Below, piece by piece: positions 6,088-20,111 of a stretch of DNA of 24,811 nucleotides. The notes under the pieces are model-generated. The model was given only the letters and a program-made list of their open reading frames with translations. It was not told where the DNA came from and did not search any database. The DNA comes from a virus. Lineage: Duplodnaviria > Heunggongvirae > Uroviricota > Caudoviricetes. The DNA is taken from positions 1-24,811 of the IMG/VR virus record IMGVR_UViG_2537561977_000030; one strand, 5' to 3'. Numbering within the stretch: the first letter of the stretch is position 1; each line of letters opens with the position of its first letter. Both the position numbers and the translations under genes were made by a program.

Positions 6088-7183
6088 CGGACACCCCTGT
6101 CATGTTAAGAGTGATCGCCGTACAGTTTGCCCATTCGTTTTCTGCAACCACCCGCAGTGCCGGTGTCACCAGTTCAACCTGGTACACCCCGGAAACGGAC
6201 AATGCACTGATAATCTGGCTGGGGACAATATCGCGCCCCAGCGTGGCGGCACGTGATGCCACCCAGTTCTGTATGGCGCTGTTAGCGTTGTCCTTTACCG
6301 ACCTTGCATCCTGATCACGATAGATCGTAATCCTGGCTTCAATGGTGTAATCCACCTGAACAGGTGTTTTAGCCCGCACGGTATCAGTGAGTGGTCTGAC
6401 TTTTTCGTCAGAACAGAAACTCTCTACCAGAGTGAGGATACCGCTGTCCGGCAGACCAGTGCTGAGCAGCGGATACAGCTCGACAGTGCCGGGAGCGGGA
6501 GAAAGAACAGCGACGTCAACAATGCTGGGATGCGCCCCCATAGCATGAAAACGGTATGCACCACGGCTTCCGGCATTGGTGAATGACTCCGGGGCCAGCC
6601 TGATACGCTCCCGGAGCCGGTCATTGTCTTCCTGCTCTGAACCGCCAGAGCTGGCCGTCAGATTGGTCACCAGCAGGTCAACGTTATCAATCTCATCAAG
6701 CAACTGACTGACCTGCGCAGGTTGCCAGCCGTTGCCAGAGGTACCCGGTTCGGTACAGGTGGCCGGGGCATTGACCAGCAGCAATCCGGCCTTCAGCACC
6801 ACATCTGTATCGGTGGCAAAAATAATACTGTCGGAAGCGCTGACGCGGGTGCCTGCCGGGATCAGCACATCAATGGCCAGTGCCTCATCCACAGAGAACT
6901 GAAGTGTGGTGGTGGCAGGCTGCGCGGCAAGGCGGTATACACCAACCAGTTCTCCGAGGTAATCAATCATTGGCTCCCGGGAAAAGGCGACCAGATTCAG
7001 CTTCGCCGCCTCCTGTACCGCCACCCTGACCAGCATTTCGCGATAGGCCCACAGGTCTATCAGCAGACGTTCTGCCTGTGCCGGATACAACGTTTTGCCG
7101 GTATCCGCTTCATACTTCGCAATCATTTCTGCCGTGATTTTATCGGCATCGCGTTCAATAAAATCGGGTTCTGTCAGCGCCAT
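6080..7183 (-). CDS. Baseplate assembly protein J (P2 gpJ / Mu gp47-like)
   Basis: 367-aa ORF; position between W-like and I-like genes; J-family-like sequence. Confidence 0.75.
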   Translation of the reverse strand: MALTEPDFIERDADKITAEMIAKYEADTGKTLYPAQAERLLIDLWAYREMLVRVAVQEAAKLNLVAFSREPMIDYLGELVGVYRLAAQPATTTLQFSVDEALAIDVLIPAGTRVSASDSIIFATDTDVVLKAGLLLVNAPATCTEPGTSGNGWQPAQVSQLLDEIDNVDLLVTNLTASSGGSEQEDNDRLRERIRLAPESFTNAGSRGAYRFHAMGAHPSIVDVAVLSPAPGTVELYPLLSTGLPDSGILTLVESFCSDEKVRPLTDTVRAKTPVQVDYTIEARITIYRDQDARSVKDNANSAIQNWVASRAATLGRDIVPSQIISALSVSGVYQVELVTPALRVVAENEWANCTAITLNMTGVSDG

Positions 7184-7521
7184 AGCAGTTCCTGAGTACG
7201 GGGTTGTCCGTCTGAGCCTTTCCAGCTCACCCGGAGCGTAAGATGTTCGCCGTCGACGGCGGGTTTAACCGACATAAGCTGGCAGCGGGGTTCCCAGCGC
7301 CTGATGGCATCGACGGATTCGCGAACCACATGCGTAATGGCCCGGTCGACAGGCCAGTCGATATAAAGGTGCAGATTACTGCCGAACTCCGGGCGATGCG
7401 GGTCGCTGCCGCGGGGAGTCCGCAGGATGATCTGAATGGACTGCCGGATATCATCCAGCCCCCGGACGATTTCGCCGGGAGCCTGCAGAGCCGGTTGCCA
7501 GAATACTGAGGTCGTTTTCAT
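7174..7521 (-). CDS. Baseplate wedge protein W (GPW/gp25 family)
   Basis: 115 aa, with the ILRTPRGS...WEPR pattern typical of P2 gpW-like proteins. Confidence 0.75.
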   Translation of the reverse strand: MKTTSVFWQPALQAPGEIVRGLDDIRQSIQIILRTPRGSDPHRPEFGSNLHLYIDWPVDRAITHVVRESVDAIRRWEPRCQLMSVKPAVDGEHLTLRVSWKGSDGQPRTQELLWR

Positions 7522-7553
7522 GGGGGGCAGTATTGCCCCCGGAAGGGAACGCC

Positions 7554-7574
7554 GATATTAAAGGCGTTTAAGAA
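7554..7574 (-). promoter_or_regulatory. Conserved 21-bp motif, copy A (candidate activator-dependent late promoter)
   Basis: GATATTAAAGGCGTTTAAGAA on the plus strand is 19/21 identical to 13346-13366. On the minus strand it reads TTCTTAAACGCCTTTAATATC, containing a TAATAT -10-like hexamer with no good -35. Confidence 0.4.
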
Positions 7575-7577
7575 ATC

Positions 7578-8090
7578 TCAGTGCGAGTGATGATTAGAGT
7601 TCTGACCATCAGACAGCATACTACCTGTCGAGTGGGCATTACCGTTAATTTCAAGGTCGCCATTCACCGTGGTGGTGTCAGCAGTCAAATCAATGGTTTT
7701 CCCCTTCAGGCTGATACCCACTGCAACCTCGATCACCACATGCTCAATACCTCCTTTGACCGTCAGCGTATGGGTCGCGCGGTTATAACTGAACTCCGCG
7801 CCATCCGCGTATTTCGTGCCCCGGACGTTTTTATCACTGAACGGCGGTTTATCGACGTCTGAGTACACCGCGCCCAGAATGACACCATCCTCGCCGTTGG
7901 CATCGAGCAGCACCTCAACCTGCTCCCCCACGTCAGGGAGCCAGTAATCCTTGTTATCCTGGGTATTGCGCTGCAGCACGTTAAGCCAGTTTGTGCGCAG
8001 GTTATCGCATTCAGGCAGACGAACGCGGGCCTGAACCCTGTCGGCATCAACGGCACTGACCGTACCGACCTGACGGGTGACACCTGTCAT
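7578..8090 (-). CDS. Baseplate spike/assembly protein V (P2 gpV / Mu gp45-like)
   Basis: 170-aa ORF with V-family-like sequence; position between D-like and W-like genes. Confidence 0.7.
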   Translation of the reverse strand: MTGVTRQVGTVSAVDADRVQARVRLPECDNLRTNWLNVLQRNTQDNKDYWLPDVGEQVEVLLDANGEDGVILGAVYSDVDKPPFSDKNVRGTKYADGAEFSYNRATHTLTVKGGIEHVVIEVAVGISLKGKTIDLTADTTTVNGDLEINGNAHSTGSMLSDGQNSNHHSH

Positions 8091-8106: not shown

Positions 8107-9240
8107 TCACCGTCGATGTACTGCCATCCGGGTGATAAACCGTGAGTTTCTGAGTTTTTGTTTTTTCCCTCTTGTGACTGGCCCCCGTGCCACTTCCAGC
8201 TCGGTGGTGTAGCCGCTGTTACGCTCAAACGCATGGCGGGCAGTGGTTATGAGCCATGGCCCGGATAACTGTCCAAAGCCCACCAGTTCAATTTTGTTGC
8301 CTGCTGTCAGTTGAGGCGTTCCCGTCAGCGTCAGGGAGCCGTTCTGCTGATATTCGTTATGTCTGGCCAGTGCTGAATCCGCTTTAATCCGGGCACTGTC
8401 CGGGTCGCTGACGCGGCTGTTAACTTTAAGTGAGTCAGCGCTGGTAACCTTACCGCCTTTGAGCTTTTTGTCGCTTTCACGGGTACCACCATCAGCTTCG
8501 TAGACGATCAGTTTTTTACTGCTGCTTTTCTGGTGTTTTACCTTTGCAGATTTATAGACCCGGTTGATGGTGTCACGCAGGGAAAAGCGGGCCACATCCT
8601 GCGGTTTTAACTGCCTGACCGGCTCCTGACTGCGCAATGTGGCCAGATGAGAAAAAATCAACTGGTCACTGACCACTTTCACTGCATAACCATACCCGCT
8701 GGCCAGCCGGCGCAGAAAACCCACGTCGGTTTCAGCATACTGGGTCACCCGGTCGATTCTGATGGACTCAATGCTGCCCACCAGTTTCAGTCGGTGCTTT
8801 CTGGCAATCCGCCCCGCAACAGCTGCCAGCGTGGTGTTCTCAAAACCACGGCTGGATTTAGTCCGCAGAGCACTGTTAACCGAGGTGGCCACCCCACGGA
8901 TAGCGACAACGGACGCGGGCGAACTCACTTCGATCTCGTCTATTGAGAATGTACCGCAGGACAGCAGTTTCTCGCCCTGATAACCCATTTTCAGCGTCAG
9001 CGTGTCACCCTTGCCCGGATACCACTTATCCAGCCAGCGGCCATCGGTGTCGTCCAGCTCCACCTCAATGGTATCGGACTCATTTTTGATGTTATCGCTC
9101 CAGACCACACGGGTGACATAAGGCGCGATATCAGAGGTGATATTTTTCTGCAGATACCACAGCGTGAACACCGGCGTCAGCACCTCGCTGACGCCGGTTA
9201 ACGCTGATGTGGCTTGCGCAGTGCTGTTTATCTCAGCCAT
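8107..9240 (-). CDS. Tail/baseplate hub protein (P2 gpD / Mu gp44-like)
   Basis: 377 aa; C-terminal ...GNKIELVGFGQLSGPWLITTARHAFERNSGYTTELEV resembles the gpD family; position after X and U. Confidence 0.7.
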   Translation of the reverse strand: MAEINSTAQATSALTGVSEVLTPVFTLWYLQKNITSDIAPYVTRVVWSDNIKNESDTIEVELDDTDGRWLDKWYPGKGDTLTLKMGYQGEKLLSCGTFSIDEIEVSSPASVVAIRGVATSVNSALRTKSSRGFENTTLAAVAGRIARKHRLKLVGSIESIRIDRVTQYAETDVGFLRRLASGYGYAVKVVSDQLIFSHLATLRSQEPVRQLKPQDVARFSLRDTINRVYKSAKVKHQKSSSKKLIVYEADGGTRESDKKLKGGKVTSADSLKVNSRVSDPDSARIKADSALARHNEYQQNGSLTLTGTPQLTAGNKIELVGFGQLSGPWLITTARHAFERNSGYTTELEVARGPVTRGKKQKLRNSRFITRMAVHRR

Positions 9241-9443: not shown

Positions 9444-10324
9444 ACACTCCTCGTCAGTATTCTGGCGGCCATTGCACTTAATCCCGGAGACATGCGGTTG
9501 AATGCTGTGCCAGCGGCGTTAAGCTGCCCGGAAACGGTATCCAGAGCACCTGCAATATTTCTTTTGTCCACACCACTCAGCGCAGACTGCGCTTGCTGTA
9601 CATACGTGGCTGCCTCACTGGCTGTTCTGGCCAGACTGATGGCTTCGGGCATGGATTCAGAGAGTGCATTAAATGCCGGAACACTTTTCCCCAGAGCTCC
9701 GGATATATTACCCAGTCCGCTCATCAGTCCCGGCACACGGGTCAGTGCGACAACGGGGTTACCCTTCATTTTCTGCGCCACCCGAACAGCACTGATAGTG
9801 GTCTGGAGTACAGACTGCGCCTGTTTCGCACAGTTGACGCCGTTACGGACGAACTGCGCCACCCCGGAAGGCGATGGAACAGCACCAGATACGGCCCCGG
9901 CACCGGGAACCTGCCTGCGTATTGCCGGCGGTTGCAGAGGATTTTTCGGGTCACCGGTGTATTCCCGGAGAGACACGGTGGCACTGACAGCCAGCACGTT
10001 ACCGGTGCTGTCTGTCTGCTCACTGGTTGCGGTCACATCGGTAATCACGAACCAGCCGCGATAGTCACCGTTGCCGAAGACCAGTGCCAGTGCCTGATGG
10101 GCCTTCATGGCTGTTCGCACTCTCGCCAGCTCCACGTCGGGCACACAATAATGCTGATGGAAGACCAGGCTTATCTGGATTTCGTCCAGCCTGTCGCCGA
10201 CGAACTGCAGGCCGGGTTTACCCCCGATGCGGGCATGCTCCGCATAATCGACGCCGGACGTGGCCTCGAAGCCGTCCCAGTAGGTAATCAGCTCAAACTC
10301 AATATCACCCAGTACGGCAAACAT
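9440..10324 (-). CDS. Tail protein (P2 gpU-like / Mu N DNA-circulation N-terminal type)
   Basis: 294 aa; N-terminal FAVLGDIEFEL...RIGGKPGLQFVGDRLDEIQISL... resembles the gpU family. Start shares a base with the tape-measure stop. Confidence 0.55.
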   Translation of the reverse strand: MFAVLGDIEFELITYWDGFEATSGVDYAEHARIGGKPGLQFVGDRLDEIQISLVFHQHYCVPDVELARVRTAMKAHQALALVFGNGDYRGWFVITDVTATSEQTDSTGNVLAVSATVSLREYTGDPKNPLQPPAIRRQVPGAGAVSGAVPSPSGVAQFVRNGVNCAKQAQSVLQTTISAVRVAQKMKGNPVVALTRVPGLMSGLGNISGALGKSVPAFNALSESMPEAISLARTASEAATYVQQAQSALSGVDKRNIAGALDTVSGQLNAAGTAFNRMSPGLSAMAARILTRSV

Positions 10325-12801
10325 CAGCGGTACTCCTTACGTTGTTTCTGAGCCAGCAGACGCTCCAGCATTTTTTCCAGCTCATGCAGGCTCATATTCA
10401 GGGCTCCAGTCAGCCCGGCAGGCGCTGCGGTTTCCTTACCATTGAGGAAAAACTGAGGATTAAAGCTGACCTGGATACCGCCAGACGCTCCACCGCCAGT
10501 TGCAGTTGCGCCACGGCCTGAATATCCGGCAGCCATGATTTCCGGCGACGGGATACGGGGAACATCCGGTGTCATTTCAGCGGCCAGGCGCTGCCCGGCC
10601 AGTGCAGCAAGCGGAGTGGTTCGCTGCAGGCCAATGGCGGCACCCTGCGCGATATTGTCACCAAAGCCCATAAACACGCGACTCGGCGAATGGATGCCCA
10701 GCTTTTCGCTGAACCAGTCACTGATGCTGTCACCCATTCCGGTTACGCTGGTTTTGAGCGACTCCCATTTGTTTCTGATGCCATTTATCAGCCCGTCGAT
10801 AAGATGACCACCGAAGTCGGTGAACTTCGCCGGCAGATCAACGCCGAGATATTTCAGCGCAGCCGCAAAGGCTTTATAAAGCAGCCCCGCCGGAGACCAG
10901 TTAACCAGCAGTTTACCAGTTCCCGCGATGCCGCCGTTAAAGGCTTCCTGAATGTCAGCCCAGCGCTGTTTAAACCAGCTACTGACTGCGCCCCAGTTGT
11001 GGTAGATAAGGTAAGCTGCTGCCGCAACGGCGGTGATAACGAGACCGATGGGATTCATCATCAGCGCCCGGCCAATCCAGAGAACGGCGCGTGCAGCAAT
11101 CATAAAACCGCGAACGAGGCTGCCCGTCAGAACTTTGCTGAGTTTCAGTCCTCCGCGGGTCAGTCGGCTGAATCCAGTGACAAGCCAGCGTAATTTGCCA
11201 CCTTCTCCGAGTGCGGTAGTCAGTCGACGCCAGTTGGTCCGGAGTAAAACAGCAGTTTTCCAGACGTTCACAAAGGGGGAAATAAGAAGATTCAGCCCCA
11301 GTTTGAGGCCAATAGTCGCTATCTTAATCGCAAGGAGCGCACTGATGAGCTTAAAAGCCCCACTGACAAATTGCGGGTGAGTCGCCACCCAGTGTTTTGC
11401 CCCCTGAATGAGTGGGATCAACTCCTGTGCCAGAGAAATAAAAGAGGGGGCGAGCTGATCGCCCAGCGTAATAGCCAGATCGCGACTGCTGACCATAAGC
11501 GCTTTAGTGGCTTCAGAGGGAGATTTCAGCCGCTGATCGTAAGCACTGGCAAGCAAATCGTTATCCGCAGCCCTGAGGGCACCGGCACGAATCTCGCGGT
11601 ACCTGTCCATGTTGGCCAGCATCGGGCGGATAAACGCCATGACCTGCATATCCGCGAACATATCGCCCAGACCAAAGTTTTTTGCCAGAGCCTGAAGTGC
11701 CTCATCTCTTGCCGTATCATTTTTTATTTTCATGGCGGATTTGAACCCGGCCAGAGCTTCGGGGCTTTTTGTATTGAGGTAACGCTCTATAACACTCAAC
11801 ATCCCTTCAATCGGAGAGATCCCCGCAGCCTTATAACTCGCAATAGATCCCTGCAAATCAATACCCAGGTCAGCAAACTGTTTCTGAGTATCGCGGGCAA
11901 AAATTTTGGTAAGAAAGTTTTTAAAGTTATTGGCCGCTTCGTCGGTGGAGCCCGCACCGATTTTTGCTATCTGGAGACTGGCCCCGATTTCAGCAACAGC
12001 CTCTTTTCCACTGGCAACGCCCGCCATCATTGGGGCCAGGGACTGCATCCATTTGACCTGATCCGGAATTTCAAATGACCCCTGATCACCGGCATAAGCC
12101 ATAATATTCTGGACGGCACCAAAATCTCTGGCGGCACCTTTCAGGGAGTTTTGCCAGACAGCGGCCACTTTTGCCCAGTCCTGAGATGACGTGCGTGTTG
12201 CCGTTGCCGCGCGGGCAATATCCGGCATCAGAAAACCGATATCTGACAAGTTATCAATATTGTCGCTGATGAGCGAACCCACCGCCTCCTGCAGCTCATC
12301 CTGATACTGATTGTATTTAAGTGCCCAGCCTTTTATCTGTCCGGCAAGTGCATCCCGCGTTTTATTGTCATATTTTGCGGTGATCGACATATCAATCATT
12401 TTGTCCTGAAAAGACATGGACTGCTGAACGGCCGGGGAAACCGTATGATAAACAGTCTGTGTCATGCCATACGCTTCAAGTCCCTGACCATACAGCGCCA
12501 TGCGGTTAGCTTTCAGCGCATCACTGGTCGCTGATGCCGCTGACAGGCGGCGCTGCTGGCGCTCAATTTGCTCCATGGTGCGGCTTACCCGCAGCAGCTC
12601 GCTGTTGAGACGCTGCATCCGGGAAGAACCCAGTTGACCATAACGTTCTGTTGCACGGGTTAAAGCGTTCTGACGTTCCTGCAGGCGGCGTGAGGTATCG
12701 CTCAGGGAATCAAGCGCACGGCGGGTACCGCTCATTGCAGAACGGAATGTGCTGCCAATCATCCCGCCGATAACAACGCCGACTGAAAACTGTCCCGACA
12801 T
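10324..12801 (-). CDS. Tail tape measure protein
   Basis: 825-aa ORF with an alpha-helical, Ala/Gly-rich central region and hydrophobic segments, placed between chaperone and baseplate genes. Confidence 0.85.
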   Translation of the reverse strand: MSGQFSVGVVIGGMIGSTFRSAMSGTRRALDSLSDTSRRLQERQNALTRATERYGQLGSSRMQRLNSELLRVSRTMEQIERQQRRLSAASATSDALKANRMALYGQGLEAYGMTQTVYHTVSPAVQQSMSFQDKMIDMSITAKYDNKTRDALAGQIKGWALKYNQYQDELQEAVGSLISDNIDNLSDIGFLMPDIARAATATRTSSQDWAKVAAVWQNSLKGAARDFGAVQNIMAYAGDQGSFEIPDQVKWMQSLAPMMAGVASGKEAVAEIGASLQIAKIGAGSTDEAANNFKNFLTKIFARDTQKQFADLGIDLQGSIASYKAAGISPIEGMLSVIERYLNTKSPEALAGFKSAMKIKNDTARDEALQALAKNFGLGDMFADMQVMAFIRPMLANMDRYREIRAGALRAADNDLLASAYDQRLKSPSEATKALMVSSRDLAITLGDQLAPSFISLAQELIPLIQGAKHWVATHPQFVSGAFKLISALLAIKIATIGLKLGLNLLISPFVNVWKTAVLLRTNWRRLTTALGEGGKLRWLVTGFSRLTRGGLKLSKVLTGSLVRGFMIAARAVLWIGRALMMNPIGLVITAVAAAAYLIYHNWGAVSSWFKQRWADIQEAFNGGIAGTGKLLVNWSPAGLLYKAFAAALKYLGVDLPAKFTDFGGHLIDGLINGIRNKWESLKTSVTGMGDSISDWFSEKLGIHSPSRVFMGFGDNIAQGAAIGLQRTTPLAALAGQRLAAEMTPDVPRIPSPEIMAAGYSGRGATATGGGASGGIQVSFNPQFFLNGKETAAPAGLTGALNMSLHELEKMLERLLAQKQRKEYR

Positions 12802-12876
12802 AGTGGTTAACCTCCGGGGAAGGTGAAAAGACGTGGGGGGATAACGCAGAACAGCCGCTGCTGGCGGCTGTCTGTA

Positions 12877-13134
12877 CTATGATTTGTCGCCGTACTCGCT
12901 TCTGATTTGCTCTTCAGCCTGCTCCAGCCACATCTCCAGATCGTCAGTATCGAGGGCATCAATCTCCCCCGGCTGAAACCTGAACCACCTTGCCAGCAGC
13001 CCCTGCGCCTGCGTCAGCGCCTTCGTTGCTCTCACCCATCCCCGTGACGAGCTGAAATCGTTTCTGCAACTGCAGGTAATCAGCCAGGTCCATATTGTCG
13101 AGATCTTCCGGGAGAAGACCAGTACTGCGGGCAA
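12877..13134 (-). CDS. Frameshift-extension ORF of the tail assembly chaperone (E'-like)
   Basis: Overlaps the chaperone ORF in the +1 (equivalently -2) frame and ends just before the tape measure, the position conserved for chaperone frameshift products. Confidence 0.5.
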   Translation of the reverse strand: MPAVLVFSRKISTIWTWLITCSCRNDFSSSRGWVRATKALTQAQGLLARWFRFQPGEIDALDTDDLEMWLEQAEEQIRSEYGDKS

Positions 13135-13294
13135 TCAGCGGTTCGTCCCAGTCAGCCGGGTTTTTGCTGATTTTACGTACTTGCTTCAGGTCTTTGACCG
13201 TCAGACGTTTCAGTTCAACCAGCTCAATTCTGGTGCCTGCAGCAGTGGTGAAGGGATAAGACAGCGTAAAAATATCGGATGAGGTCTGTGACAT
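12959..13294 (-). CDS. Tail assembly chaperone (P2 gpE / Mu gp41-like)
   Basis: 111-aa acidic ORF directly upstream of the tape measure; AGGAG 7 nt before the ATG. Confidence 0.65.
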   Translation of the reverse strand: MSQTSSDIFTLSYPFTTAAGTRIELVELKRLTVKDLKQVRKISKNPADWDEPLIARSTGLLPEDLDNMDLADYLQLQKRFQLVTGMGESNEGADAGAGAAGKVVQVSAGGD

Positions 13295-13345
13295 GATGTG
13301 CTCCTGTGTAAGTTCAGGGCAGTATGTCGGGAGAAGCGCGTGACG

Positions 13346-13366
13346 GATATTAAAGGAGATTAAGAA
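13346..13366 (-). promoter_or_regulatory. Conserved 21-bp motif, copy B (candidate late promoter upstream of the chaperone gene)
   Basis: GATATTAAAGGAGATTAAGAA; on the minus strand it follows the hairpin at 13371-13384 and precedes the chaperone ATG by about 50 nt. Confidence 0.4.
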
Positions 13367-13370
13367 GAAG

Positions 13371-13384
13371 GGGCCGGAGCCCCT
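13371..13384 (-). terminator. Hairpin followed by a T-rich tract on the minus strand, downstream of the 73-aa ORF
   Basis: GGGGCCGGAGCCCC has a 5-bp GC stem and is followed on the minus strand by TTCTTCTT. Confidence 0.4.
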
Positions 13385-13390
13385 GTGATG

Positions 13391-13612
13391 TCAGCAAGTG
13401 CGAAAACCCTTGCAGTTACGCAGGAAAGCGATGAGAAGCGTCTTTCCCTCCGCTTTGCCTGTGCCGGAGAACCAGTGGTCGGGCGGCTCCCATGCTTCAA
13501 TCAAATCGGCCAGTTTGCGGGCCTTTGAACGTGTGCAGTCAATCGGGTCATTGGTTTTACGGGTGTTACCCCCCGGAATATCAAGGAGGGTAAACCACGT
13601 ACCATTTGACAT
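13391..13612 (-). CDS. Hypothetical 73-aa protein between tail tube and chaperone (possible moron)
   Basis: ORF only; weak ribosome-binding site; has its own downstream hairpin; sits where this tail-module layout normally has no gene. Confidence 0.35.
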   Translation of the reverse strand: MSNGTWFTLLDIPGGNTRKTNDPIDCTRSKARKLADLIEAWEPPDHWFSGTGKAEGKTLLIAFLRNCKGFRTC

Positions 13613-13663
13613 GCCCGGTGACGCACAGCGCCCCCCCTTTGTCAGTCAGTTCAACGCTCACCG

Positions 13664-14185
13664 TCAGCCCCCGATATTGATACGGTAGTCAGTCAGCTGG
13701 TCAACGCCACCGACCCGGAAGATGTTGGCCAGATAGTCCAGTTGCAGCAGCTCTTCACCATCCAGTACCTGTCTGATATACGTGCAGGTGAAGCTACTGG
13801 AGAACTCGGCGTTCTCGTGCTGTTTGAACGTCCCCAGCGGGTTCTTCTTGAACATAATCGTCAGGAAGGTGACCAGCGGGATTTCGTCGATCAGCCCCTG
13901 CGAACTGTAGCGCTGGACGCTTGAGCGACACTGCAGCGCCAGCGACCTGTACGGGTTCGCGGCAGACAGCATCGCATCGCGGTAAAAGCTGTTCCATTTG
14001 ATTTCGCCTTCCAGTTTGTCAAAACCAGCCGGGAGTTCCACCTTACCCACCATCCCCAGTGCCTTGTGTTCCTGCATAATCATGGAGACATCGGGGAGTT
14101 TAACTTCCTCAGCCCGTCCCAGCAGGTTAGTACCATCCAGATAGATGTTGGCATTCGTGATTCGGTTTATCTCAATCTTTGACAT
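13664..14185 (-). CDS. Tail tube protein (Mu gpM / P2 FII-like)
   Basis: 173-aa ORF immediately after the sheath gene; start shares a base with the sheath stop. Confidence 0.8.
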   Translation of the reverse strand: MSKIEINRITNANIYLDGTNLLGRAEEVKLPDVSMIMQEHKALGMVGKVELPAGFDKLEGEIKWNSFYRDAMLSAANPYRSLALQCRSSVQRYSSQGLIDEIPLVTFLTIMFKKNPLGTFKQHENAEFSSSFTCTYIRQVLDGEELLQLDYLANIFRVGGVDQLTDYRINIGG

Positions 14186-15618
14186 CAGTTGCCCCCTTTC
14201 AGGGTTAACAGGTATTCCGAGGTGATCTCCGTCTCATACGTCAGCCGCTCCAGCGGTGGCGGCGGCGTGTATTTGTAGCTCAGCAACAGGTGACCGGCGG
14301 CCAGCTCCGTCTCCGGATTGCGGGCCGGATCAAACCAGCAACGGAAGCCCAGTACCGCACCATCACCAGTCATTTTGCGACCGTAGGCGTTGACCGACTC
14401 CGTCAGTGCATCAATCAGCGCCTGAGTAATCGGCATGTCGATGTACTGCTGGCTGAAGTAACGAATGGACTCGTTGATCACATCACCGGTGCGGCGAACG
14501 TTCTCAAAGTTACGCATATGGGTGACCGTTGGCCATGCTGCCGTCCGGTTACCCCACAGACGAAGGCCGCTGCCGTAACTGCTGAATACCGTGGTGATCC
14601 CCTGTTCGTTAAGCAGGTTCACCTCGCTCTGCGGATCGTCAATCATTGCCGACAGCTGGCGCTCCACGCCGGTGATCCCCAGAATTTCCTGATTGGAGGA
14701 TGACCACCAGTACCCTTTGTCCAGGTCGACTCTGGCACGCAGGCCCGCCGCACGCTGGCTCAGTGGCTCCAGACGCTCCGTGTTTGTCACCGGGTCATAT
14801 ACCTTCACATGCGGGTAGCACAGGCGGACACGGTCAGAGCTGGTATTGAAATTAATGGTGCCTTCCGGGCCACGTCCCGCCAGAGCCTGCGCAAAAGTGG
14901 TACCAACCGGCGCATCAATATAGGTTACTGCTCCCAGTTTCTCAGCCATGGCGATAAGCTCAACCGAGACGCTGTTCTGGGTGCAGAATACCGGCGCAAT
15001 CAGGATTTTGGCGAAGTAGCCAAACAGGTTAAAACTGTCGTTAAGCAGCTTCATGCCGGTACGGTTGCCCGCCGCGTTAACGGCACCGATGATATCAGCC
15101 GGGGTGACTCTGGTCGGATCAGCATAGTTATAGCTGGCCTTCACCGTTGCATCTGCAGCAATGCTTTTACCCAGGTTAGTAATCACCCCGGTCTGTGCAT
15201 CAAGCGAGTAGTCCTGACCTTCAACATAAGGCTGACCGTCGCTGTCCGGTTTCAGTACCAGCTGCGCGACCACCGGATTAGCCAGCCGGGCTCTGCCTGT
15301 CGCCTTGTCGAACGACACATTCTCACTGACCACAGCGGTTTTATGCACAGACGGATCGAGTACGTTAATGACCAGAACGGTGCCTGCACCATGGTCATAA
15401 ATCGCATCCAGCGCCTGCGGAATGGTAAAGCCGTTGAACTGGCTGCCAAATGCTGCAGCGTCTTTCTCAGACAGGCACTGTACCAGCGTATTGACATCCC
15501 CCATTGGTGCGGTACCAATCAGGCCAATAACGGCAGATTTCACCGTTTTAACCGGGCGGGCACCGTTTTCCACTTCAATGGTTTCGGGACCATGCAGATA
15601 GTTAGCTGACATGGGCAT
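14185..15618 (-). CDS. Contractile tail sheath protein (Mu gpL / P2 FI-like)
   Basis: 477-aa ORF with sheath-like sequence, upstream of the tube gene. Confidence 0.85.
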   Translation of the reverse strand: MPMSANYLHGPETIEVENGARPVKTVKSAVIGLIGTAPMGDVNTLVQCLSEKDAAAFGSQFNGFTIPQALDAIYDHGAGTVLVINVLDPSVHKTAVVSENVSFDKATGRARLANPVVAQLVLKPDSDGQPYVEGQDYSLDAQTGVITNLGKSIAADATVKASYNYADPTRVTPADIIGAVNAAGNRTGMKLLNDSFNLFGYFAKILIAPVFCTQNSVSVELIAMAEKLGAVTYIDAPVGTTFAQALAGRGPEGTINFNTSSDRVRLCYPHVKVYDPVTNTERLEPLSQRAAGLRARVDLDKGYWWSSSNQEILGITGVERQLSAMIDDPQSEVNLLNEQGITTVFSSYGSGLRLWGNRTAAWPTVTHMRNFENVRRTGDVINESIRYFSQQYIDMPITQALIDALTESVNAYGRKMTGDGAVLGFRCWFDPARNPETELAAGHLLLSYKYTPPPPLERLTYETEITSEYLLTLKGGN

Positions 15619-19289: not shown

Positions 19290-20111
19290 TTATCCTCTCA
19301 GTTCCTGTTGTGCCAGTGGCTGAAGCGTACCCTGATAGCGGGCAAGGTCGGGACGGTATGCTGCCCCCGGTGCATAAGACCAGCCGACGTCGGTGGTCAC
19401 CTTCGTGGTGCCGGTATTAAAGGTGGCCACGTTCCGCATTTCGCCGGTTTTCTCTGAGACCAGTTTCAGTTCATGGCCCATGGCAGAGCCGGAGCTGATA
19501 ACCTTCAGGCCACGGGCACGTACATCCGCCGCACTCAGGGCAATCACACTACAGCGGCAGCGCCAGCCGTTCGGCGGGTAAAATGCCTGCCAGAACGGGT
19601 CATCCCAGCGCAGCACCAGACCATGCAGCGCCAGATGGCTCCTGCGGGTATGGCTGTCGTTGATGCCGGTATACATCCAGTACGGCCTGTCGTCGACGTT
19701 TTCCATCTGTTCCGCCCAACGACCGGCGCTGTAGAGTACGGACATATTGGTGCGAAAGATGGTATCGAGCCGCCACGAACTGCCCTGCTGAATGGTGACC
19801 GGCTCACCCGTTACCGGGTCAGTCGTGTCACTCGGTCCCCACCATCCCCTGCGCTTCAGCGCCGGCTCCAGCTCCTGCCGGAACCAGCGATCGGTTTTTC
19901 CTTCATCGACAGCCTGCTGCAGTGTCCCACGAATATCTTCCAGGATATCCAGGCGGGTCACTTTAGCGACGGTAAAGGCGCGGGCATGGGCTTCCTGCCA
20001 CATTTCTTCCCAGTCCCAGGTAATCTGATACCCTTTGGACTTCAGGTAGCTGATTGCCCGCTTCGGGGGAAGCGTCATGCAGTACGCCAGTTCAGCCGTT
20101 GTCACGCTCAT
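19290..20111 (-). CDS. Head morphogenesis protein (Mu F / SPP1 gp7 family)
   Basis: F-family-like sequence. Likely ATG at 20111 with a GGGGG ribosome-binding site; the track start at 20138 is TTG. Confidence 0.75.
   Translation of the reverse strand: MSVTTAELAYCMTLPPKRAISYLKSKGYQITWDWEEMWQEAHARAFTVAKVTRLDILEDIRGTLQQAVDEGKTDRWFRQELEPALKRRGWWGPSDTTDPVTGEPVTIQQGSSWRLDTIFRTNMSVLYSAGRWAEQMENVDDRPYWMYTGINDSHTRRSHLALHGLVLRWDDPFWQAFYPPNGWRCRCSVIALSAADVRARGLKVISSGSAMGHELKLVSEKTGEMRNVATFNTGTTKVTTDVGWSYAPGAAYRPDLARYQGTLQPLAQQELRG

Follow-up and report, generated by a model that had tools for sequence, protein, structure and literature searches.

What is a small open reading frame (ORF) doing between the tail tube gene and the tail assembly chaperone gene of a BcepMu-like prophage? 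In the 24,811-nucleotide stretch of DNA analyzed here (the window), an ORF of 73 codons is present between these two genes, at positions 13391-13612 on the minus strand. An earlier note on this DNA had put it forward as a moron candidate, pointing to a hairpin and T-rich tract behind it, to a promoter candidate farther downstream, and to a tail-module layout that normally has no gene at this place. We consider it probable that the ORF is what remains of a catalogued accessory gene, a member of the DUF7739 / PHROG 1239 family whose copy here is frameshifted (or mis-assembled) and sits in the tail operon behind the tube stop codon and ahead of a hairpin that was there before it.

The host element is a BcepMu-like prophage with a P2-type tail module. 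Two annotated phages come closest to it, Escherichia phage PhiKM, which is placed in Bcepmuvirus and shares 95% DNA identity, and Klebsiella phage KP12. The tube-to-chaperone stretch was found in 629 of 5,426 complete E. coli genomes (about 12%) at 80-94% identity. The surrounding genes are all encoded on the minus strand: sheath (14185-15618), tail tube (13664-14185; 173 aa), the 73-aa ORF, chaperone (12959-13294; 111 aa), and tape measure (10324-12801). The tube protein matched Pfam Phage_tube with E = 2.9e-53 and is 100% identical to that of PhiKM. The chaperone matched Phage_TAC_7 (E = 8e-21), and its Shine-Dalgarno sequence, AGGAG, can be read directly at 13302-13306(-). Compared to BcepMu, the window has the same series of homologous tail proteins (sheath, tube, chaperone with a frameshift extension, and tape measure), a homologous tube-to-chaperone intergenic region, a hairpin after the tube gene, and the same chaperone ribosome site, GGAGCAC-N3-ATG/GTG. 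However, BcepMu has no gene between tube and hairpin, whereas the enterobacterial clade has one or two cargo genes there.

The homology search proposed in the earlier note gave a match of the 73-aa ORF to PHROG 1239 (E = 2.4e-35, 121.6 bits) and placed it in the family of DUF7739 and Sf6 gene 22. The Pfam scan of the ORF gave no match to DUF7739 (PF24881; gathering threshold 27 bits); the 93-aa relatives score 24.9-25.3 bits, and the tail-module subfamily lies just below the Pfam cut-off (24.9 versus 27 bits). DUF7739 was matched by 11 of the 26 aligned family members, with a best E of 4.1e-19, and UniRef names Sf6 gp22 a "DUF7739 domain-containing protein." Judged from sequence, membership in DUF7739 holds by transitive homology. 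Scans of the protein and its homologues against Pfam, NCBIfam, and PADLOC returned only the sub-threshold DUF7739 match, and a literature search on DUF7739/PF24881, phrog_1239, the Sf6 gene 22 protein, and fHe-Yen8-01 returned nothing relevant.

The type example of the family, the Sf6 gene 22 protein (NP_958198), is about 43% identical (tblastn). Members have in common a length of 90-100 aa, an M-T-V N-terminus, and the motifs NGTWF, TNDP, WxPP, and CxGF. Two differences set the window gene apart. First, its place is in a late tail operon, immediately behind the tube gene, whereas the Sf6 gene lies in an early-left accessory region. Second, compared to the DUF7739 family, 4 residues are deleted from the window copy and its frame is shifted by +1. 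The gene family is already catalogued, and the window copy is an ordinary accessory gene.

The extent of the gene is not that of the 73-aa ORF. The ORF matched the PHROG 1239 profile at positions 20-96 of 96 only, which was the first sign of a missing N-terminus; the homologue of a Yersinia phage matches positions 1-95. In relatives, the accessory gene has 89-93 codons and begins two bases past the tube stop with GTG, ATG, or TTG, the three codons replacing one another at one and the same start position, and the N-terminal M-[TS]-V motif is kept throughout the family, including its distant homologues. The annotated gene of PhiKM, KP12, and E. coli chromosomes has 282 nt (93 aa) and likewise begins 2 nt after the tube stop. 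The nearest relatives of the window copy (P0001 and contigs L005-L009) have 89 aa with 99% protein identity and share with it an in-frame 12-nt deletion; the N-terminus of P0001 (89 aa) is intact. The deletion, which turns GVETLFNT of the 93-aa form into GGNT, is lineage-specific and has its junction at 13568-13569(-) in the window; the junction sequence had no exact match among species-representative genomes.

On this evidence, the true start of the gene in the window is the GTG at 13659-13661(-), 2 nt past the tube stop codon TGA (13664-13666), and the full gene would run over 89 codons to the stop at 13391-13393 (13391-13661, minus strand). A Shine-Dalgarno-like GGGGG run at 13668-13672(-), in the 3'-terminal part of the tube gene and 6 nt ahead of the GTG, is conserved in relatives and suggests translational coupling. 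The upstream start is also supported by the structure model described below, because residues 2-7 and 15-18 form two strands of its sheet. The frame is broken after codon 10 at a G7 homopolymer (C7 on the plus strand), which the earlier note had rightly located just upstream of its ORF and which occupies 13631-13637(-). With one G taken out of this run, translation from GTG 13661 yields 89 aa and agrees with P0001 at all but 1 residue.

The 73-codon ORF thus makes up the last four-fifths of a small, conserved gene of phages, reaching from an internal methionine, Met17, to the stop of the accessory gene, and the boundaries given in the earlier note do not stand. Its remark on a weak ribosome-binding site was correct, but the site is weak because the ATG at 13612 is Met17 and not the true start of the gene. 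Database entries of 77 aa have the same internal start, which was called in many records even where the frame is intact. The 73-aa form of the window and the 77-aa forms of the databases are truncated calls; in annotation, the gene should be called from GTG 13661 and the frameshift flagged.

The gene is absent from some related tail modules. The tube gene is followed directly by the chaperone gene in BcepMu, in a Salmonella STM4212-type remnant, in Pseudomonas phage Bise, and in Pasteurella AFS-2018a; tube identity to the window is 67% for BcepMu and 74% for the STM4212-type remnant. The earlier note's description of a layout without a gene here is thus often true. The comparison of presence and absence that it had proposed was made on the 80 IMG/VR loci whose tube proteins come closest (at least 91% identity); the gene was found in 71 of them and is missing from 9. 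The order tube-gene-chaperone was seen in 15 of 15 species-representative genomes that carry the family. Other genes occupy the same site. A second cargo gene, of PF13876 (the N4 Gp49 / Sf6 gene 66 family), lies between the tube and DUF7739 genes in a subset of relatives, namely about 10 IMG/VR loci (e.g., L046-L051) and a plasmid element of E. coli JCH8249 (L004, 3370-3663). An unrelated 66-aa phrog_9518 gene lies at about 2023-2223 of L191 (tube 91% identical), upstream of that locus's own backbone hairpin. In the loci with a PF13876 gene, the end of that gene runs into the DUF7739 start, and the DUF7739 start codon there is ATG.

Homologues at 40-54% identity were found in other genomic settings. 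The Sf6 homologue lies between DUF2737 and an Ea22-like gene, near abc2 and Lar, and those of Edwardsiella EPP-1 and an Enterobacter phage lie in accessory regions of the same early-left type; the early-left neighbors of the homologues are abc2, Lar, Ea22, EaA, and EaE. In phages of about 92-99 kb, the homologues are within arrays of small genes, and the Sf6 record notes a likeness to a gene of plasmid pHCM2. Since the gene is present in some relatives and absent from others, and since its homologues lie in quite different places, it is a mobile accessory gene, optional cargo in a slot after the tube gene that is re-used. The G+C content is 0.545-0.56 across the gene versus 0.50-0.575 in flanking windows.

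What the intact protein does may be approached through its predicted structure. The structure prediction that the earlier note had called for gave a confident AlphaFold model of the 93-aa form (pLDDT 85.8), with the order beta-beta-alpha-beta-alpha-alpha-beta and a four-stranded sheet made of strands at residues 2-7, 15-18, 45-47, and 89-92. This small alpha/beta fold weakly resembles Neisseria DMP12 (3w1o), Burkholderia CdiI (5j4a), and E. coli YfbM (1ryl); sequence identity to the three is 6-12%, and membership of their families is not supported. A sequence search of the PDB with the family profile gave no match, and Foldseek gave nothing significant in the PDB and essentially no named match in BFVD. 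The family protein P0002 has 11 Asp/Glu versus 14 Lys/Arg, counted on the sequence, for a net charge of about +3. Because it is mildly basic, the protein is not a DNA mimic like DMP12, a type of protein marked by a strongly acidic surface. No toxin gene or domain was adjacent to family members in any context examined, which argues against a classical immunity pair; unlike the gene for CdiI, the accessory gene has tube and chaperone genes as its neighbors and no cognate toxin. Our best but tentative proposal, which falls short of even odds, is that the intact protein is a small cytoplasmic alpha/beta binder that neutralizes another protein, such as a host factor or a factor of a rival element. 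The proposal is based on the host-directed accessory genes that neighbor the homologues in other phages and on the weak fold resemblance to DMP12, CdiI, and YfbM. Late expression would be unusual for an anti-defense protein, and we counted it against the proposal.

A more far-reaching interpretation is that the gap between tube stop and terminator is a dedicated cargo slot, in which host-directed genes ride on the most abundant late transcript, and that DUF7739 is a new family of immunity-like inhibitors. We regard this interpretation as unlikely. If it were true, the cargo of the slot in enterobacterial BcepMu-like prophages would include DUF7739, the N4-Gp49/Sf6-gp66 family, and phrog_9518, and DUF7739 could be, for example, an anti-defense factor that is produced late in infection and perhaps brought along into the next cell.

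Alternatively, the protein could be a component of the tail or virion, or an assembly factor, either associated with the tube or packaged, rather than host-directed cargo. The placement of the gene in the tail operon, its coupling to the tube gene, and its fixation in most enterobacterial members (71 of the 80 loci and all 15 species representatives) would be expected of such a role, and the homologue of Yersinia phage fHe-Yen8-01 is annotated as a "particle associated protein." However, the gene is absent from relatives whose tube is 91-96% identical and from BcepMu, which has otherwise the same tail module; Sf6 and other P22-like phages (Lederbergvirus) carry its homologues in early operons, and unrelated small genes are found in the same slot of other relatives. 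The P22-like phages have short tails without a tube. The "particle associated" label was set aside as structural evidence, as the same record applies it to methyltransferases, a terminase, and an anti-restriction protein. A structural role is improbable and less likely than that of a small protein-binding inhibitor.

The signals behind the gene bear on whether it came as a cassette of its own. A GC-rich stem-loop with a 6-bp stem and a UCCG loop (AGGGGC-UCCG-GCCCCU) lies at 13369-13384(-), folds at -12.8 kcal/mol (z-score -3.4), and is followed by UUCUUCUUAAU, a U-rich tail interrupted by C; the T-rich tail TCTTCTTAAT, a U-tract broken by C, takes up 13359-13368(-). The stem-loop is terminator- or attenuator-like, and 3 terminator-like sites were found in the region versus 1.4 +/- 1.4 expected, a number no higher than chance would give. 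Farther on, at 13318-13366(-), lies a composite motif, TTCTTAA-N3-CCTTTAATATC-N19-CATACTGCC, which is probably the "motif B" of the earlier note, so that both the hairpin with its T-rich tract and the promoter candidate that it described are there. An Rfam scan of 13100-13800 gave only a chance-level match.

These elements were also found where the gene is missing. Hairpins occur in relatives with and without the gene: nine post-tube hairpins with different stems, each folding at -12 to -24 kcal/mol, were found at the same position, and the T-rich tail is conserved over 41 distinct intergenic variants. At the empty sites of L165, L177, L180, and L181, a hairpin within about 15 nt of the tube stop is followed by a T-tract and, downstream of it, by CCCTTTAATATC, a 19-nt spacer, (G)ACATACTGC, and the chaperone ribosome site, which means that the motif and its -10-like box are retained there. 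The sequence after the BcepMu tube gene reads GGCCCGC-TTCG-GCGGGCC-TTTTTT, and the hairpin after that of STM4212 reads GGGGC-TGCG-GCCCC. Because hairpin, T-tract, and motif are also present at empty sites, and a hairpin also follows the tube gene in BcepMu and STM4212, they are part of the backbone of the tail operon and not the gene's own. At two other empty sites, L186 and L193 (tube 91% identical), the post-tube hairpin is missing and yet a CCCTTTAATATC-N19-CAATACTGC motif is kept; the motif is, on account of these two loci, the more strictly conserved of the two elements.

Morons of temperate phages were reportedly defined by Hendrix and colleagues for lambdoid phages. A classical autonomous moron at this locus would be a self-contained cassette with its own terminator and a flanking promoter, expressed from the repressed prophage for the benefit of the lysogen. 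The accessory gene resembles morons in several ways: it is an extra gene, present or absent among closely related genomes at the same site (9 of the 80 loci are without it), it separates two genes that are otherwise direct neighbors, at a site re-used by unrelated cargo, its homologues lie in unrelated genomic contexts, and a hairpin and T-rich tract follow it. However, the gene was found to have no sigma-70 promoter and no terminator of its own, nor a deviant composition. The terminator-then-promoter arrangement, which the earlier note took as a mark of moron insertion, is real but belongs to the backbone and is kept in relatives with empty sites. No sigma-70 promoter was found on either strand of 12700-14300, and the promoter-like motif is located behind the gene, facing away from it. 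The gene starts 2 nt past the tube stop, its ribosome-binding site is within the tube gene, and at 0.55 its G+C content is no different from that of the neighbors. Expression of the accessory gene, unlike that of a moron, would be expected only with the late operon. Of the moron proposal, the extra and mobile accessory gene stands and the self-contained cassette does not; we give the autonomous moron a very low probability.

The composite motif has features of interest in its own right. Two matches were found in the window versus 0 expected, at 13318-13366(-) and 7526-7570(-), and the pattern of the two copies is TTCTTAA-N3-CCTTTAATATC-N18/19-CA(A/T)TACTGCC. Both copies are on the coding strand of intergenic gaps in the tail cluster, the second in the gap before a 115-aa ORF (7174-7521). 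A third, partial copy at 19413-19423 was discarded, as it lies inside a coding region and its second box is missing. Over the 41 intergenic variants, both boxes are kept, while the stretch between them is fixed in length and freely variable in sequence, a pattern expected of a promoter. The search of 12700-14300, negative on both strands, was for sigma-70 consensus matches, and the motif is put forward as a candidate late promoter, dependent on an activator, that would serve the chaperone and tape-measure genes.

These observations suggest how a frameshifted DUF7739 accessory gene would fit into the operon. The gene would be co-transcribed and translationally coupled with sheath and tube on the late transcript and would not form an autonomous cassette. 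The hairpin, a putative terminator, probably attenuates read-through past the abundant sheath and tube messages, and the candidate promoter downstream probably initiates or raises the transcription of chaperone and tape measure. An accessory gene can thus join a structural operon without bringing regulatory signals, by landing upstream of an existing terminator. Beyond the gene itself, a re-used cargo slot and a candidate late-promoter motif have been identified in a group of prophages that is found in about 12% of complete E. coli genomes.

The frameshift needs separate consideration. As read from the alignment, the near-identical contigs L005, L006, and L007 have G6 where the window has G7, and the window copy carries a +1 frameshift through one extra G in a G6 run, with only the Met17 remnant staying open. 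This remnant, at 73 aa, would be without the two N-terminal beta-strands of the predicted four-stranded sheet and, if the extra G did not arise in sequencing, is probably non-functional. The window is 99.8% identical to L005 over 11.7 kb, and the only two indels between them both lie in homopolymers and both break a frame. The second is near 8159, where the gpD-like ORF of the window (8107-9240, minus strand) has A5 on the coding strand versus A6 in L005; it replaces some 23 residues at the C-terminus of that protein and removes the ATGA stop/start overlap with the gene that follows (7578-8090). Because of this second frame-breaking homopolymer indel in the same window, a sequencing error in the homopolymer is about as likely as a real mutation, and errors of assembly in homopolymers account for the pattern no less well than prophage decay does.

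A further suggestion is that the G7 run acts as a functional switch, by which full-length protein is made at a regulated low level through programmed +1 frameshifting, transcriptional slippage, or phase variation. A G7 run would allow tRNA-Gly to re-pair in the +1 frame, and single-base indel alleles of the accessory gene recur in the databases. Against this, the homopolymer is not conserved: the run is G7 in the window and G6 in its lineage, and most other relatives have GGAGGA or GGCGGG, so that the slippery homopolymer shared among relatives that would mark a programmed frameshift or a phase-variable tract was not found. Furthermore, the remaining indel alleles sit at different positions, and the unrelated homopolymer indel that breaks the gpD-like gene points to assembly error or decay and not to design. 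The chance of such a switch is slim. Single-base indel alleles at various positions elsewhere in the gene were seen in about 5 of 80 database copies (about 6% of those sampled), the loci concerned being L045, L074, L091, L094, and L096 and the proteins P0012, P0020, and P0026; gene callers turn the indel-bearing copies into chimeric or truncated proteins.

The coding status of the gene is supported by selection as well as by homology. Pairwise dN/dS is 0.13-0.17 at dS of about 0.8, which indicates purifying selection, and an exhaustive profile search gave 78 clusters at 50% identity, nearly all of 90-100 aa. ORF length is uninformative, with 92 ORFs of at least 70 aa in the window, and the ORF is significant because of its homology to PHROG 1239 and its conservation, not its length. 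An antisense ORF of 96 aa (13398-13688, plus strand) was dropped, as it has no family match. The idea that the 73-aa ORF is spurious and the stretch merely a long intergenic spacer has a negligible chance of being right, and the conservation data already refute it, for unremarkable as the ORF is among the 92 of similar or greater length, the PHROG match, the low dN/dS, the 78 homologous clusters, the confident fold prediction, and the want of a family match for the antisense ORF all speak against it.

Several minor observations concern the neighboring genes and the relatives. A GpE-like extension of the chaperone, with a match to PHROG 8286 and a weak one to Pfam GpE, lies at 12877-13134(-) and overlaps the chaperone ORF at 12959-13294(-). 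It is in the +1 frame with respect to the chaperone ORF, not the -1 frame, and a G5 run lies at 12966-12970, immediately ahead of the chaperone stop. The sole X XXY YYZ heptamer found was AAACCCG at 13163, far upstream. In Pantoea stewartii ATCC 8199 (L106), the gap between the DUF7739 and chaperone genes is about 1.4 kb versus the usual 105 nt or so, which suggests an insertion, possibly of an IS element. Finally, an 8.2-kb contig titled Arthrobacter sp. GMC3 (NZ_PJIO01000028.1; L100) carries this segment of an enterobacterial prophage, and its tube and DUF7739 proteins are 100% identical; the sequence also exists as an IMG/VR entry of equal length, and its place in an actinobacterial assembly is probably due to contamination.
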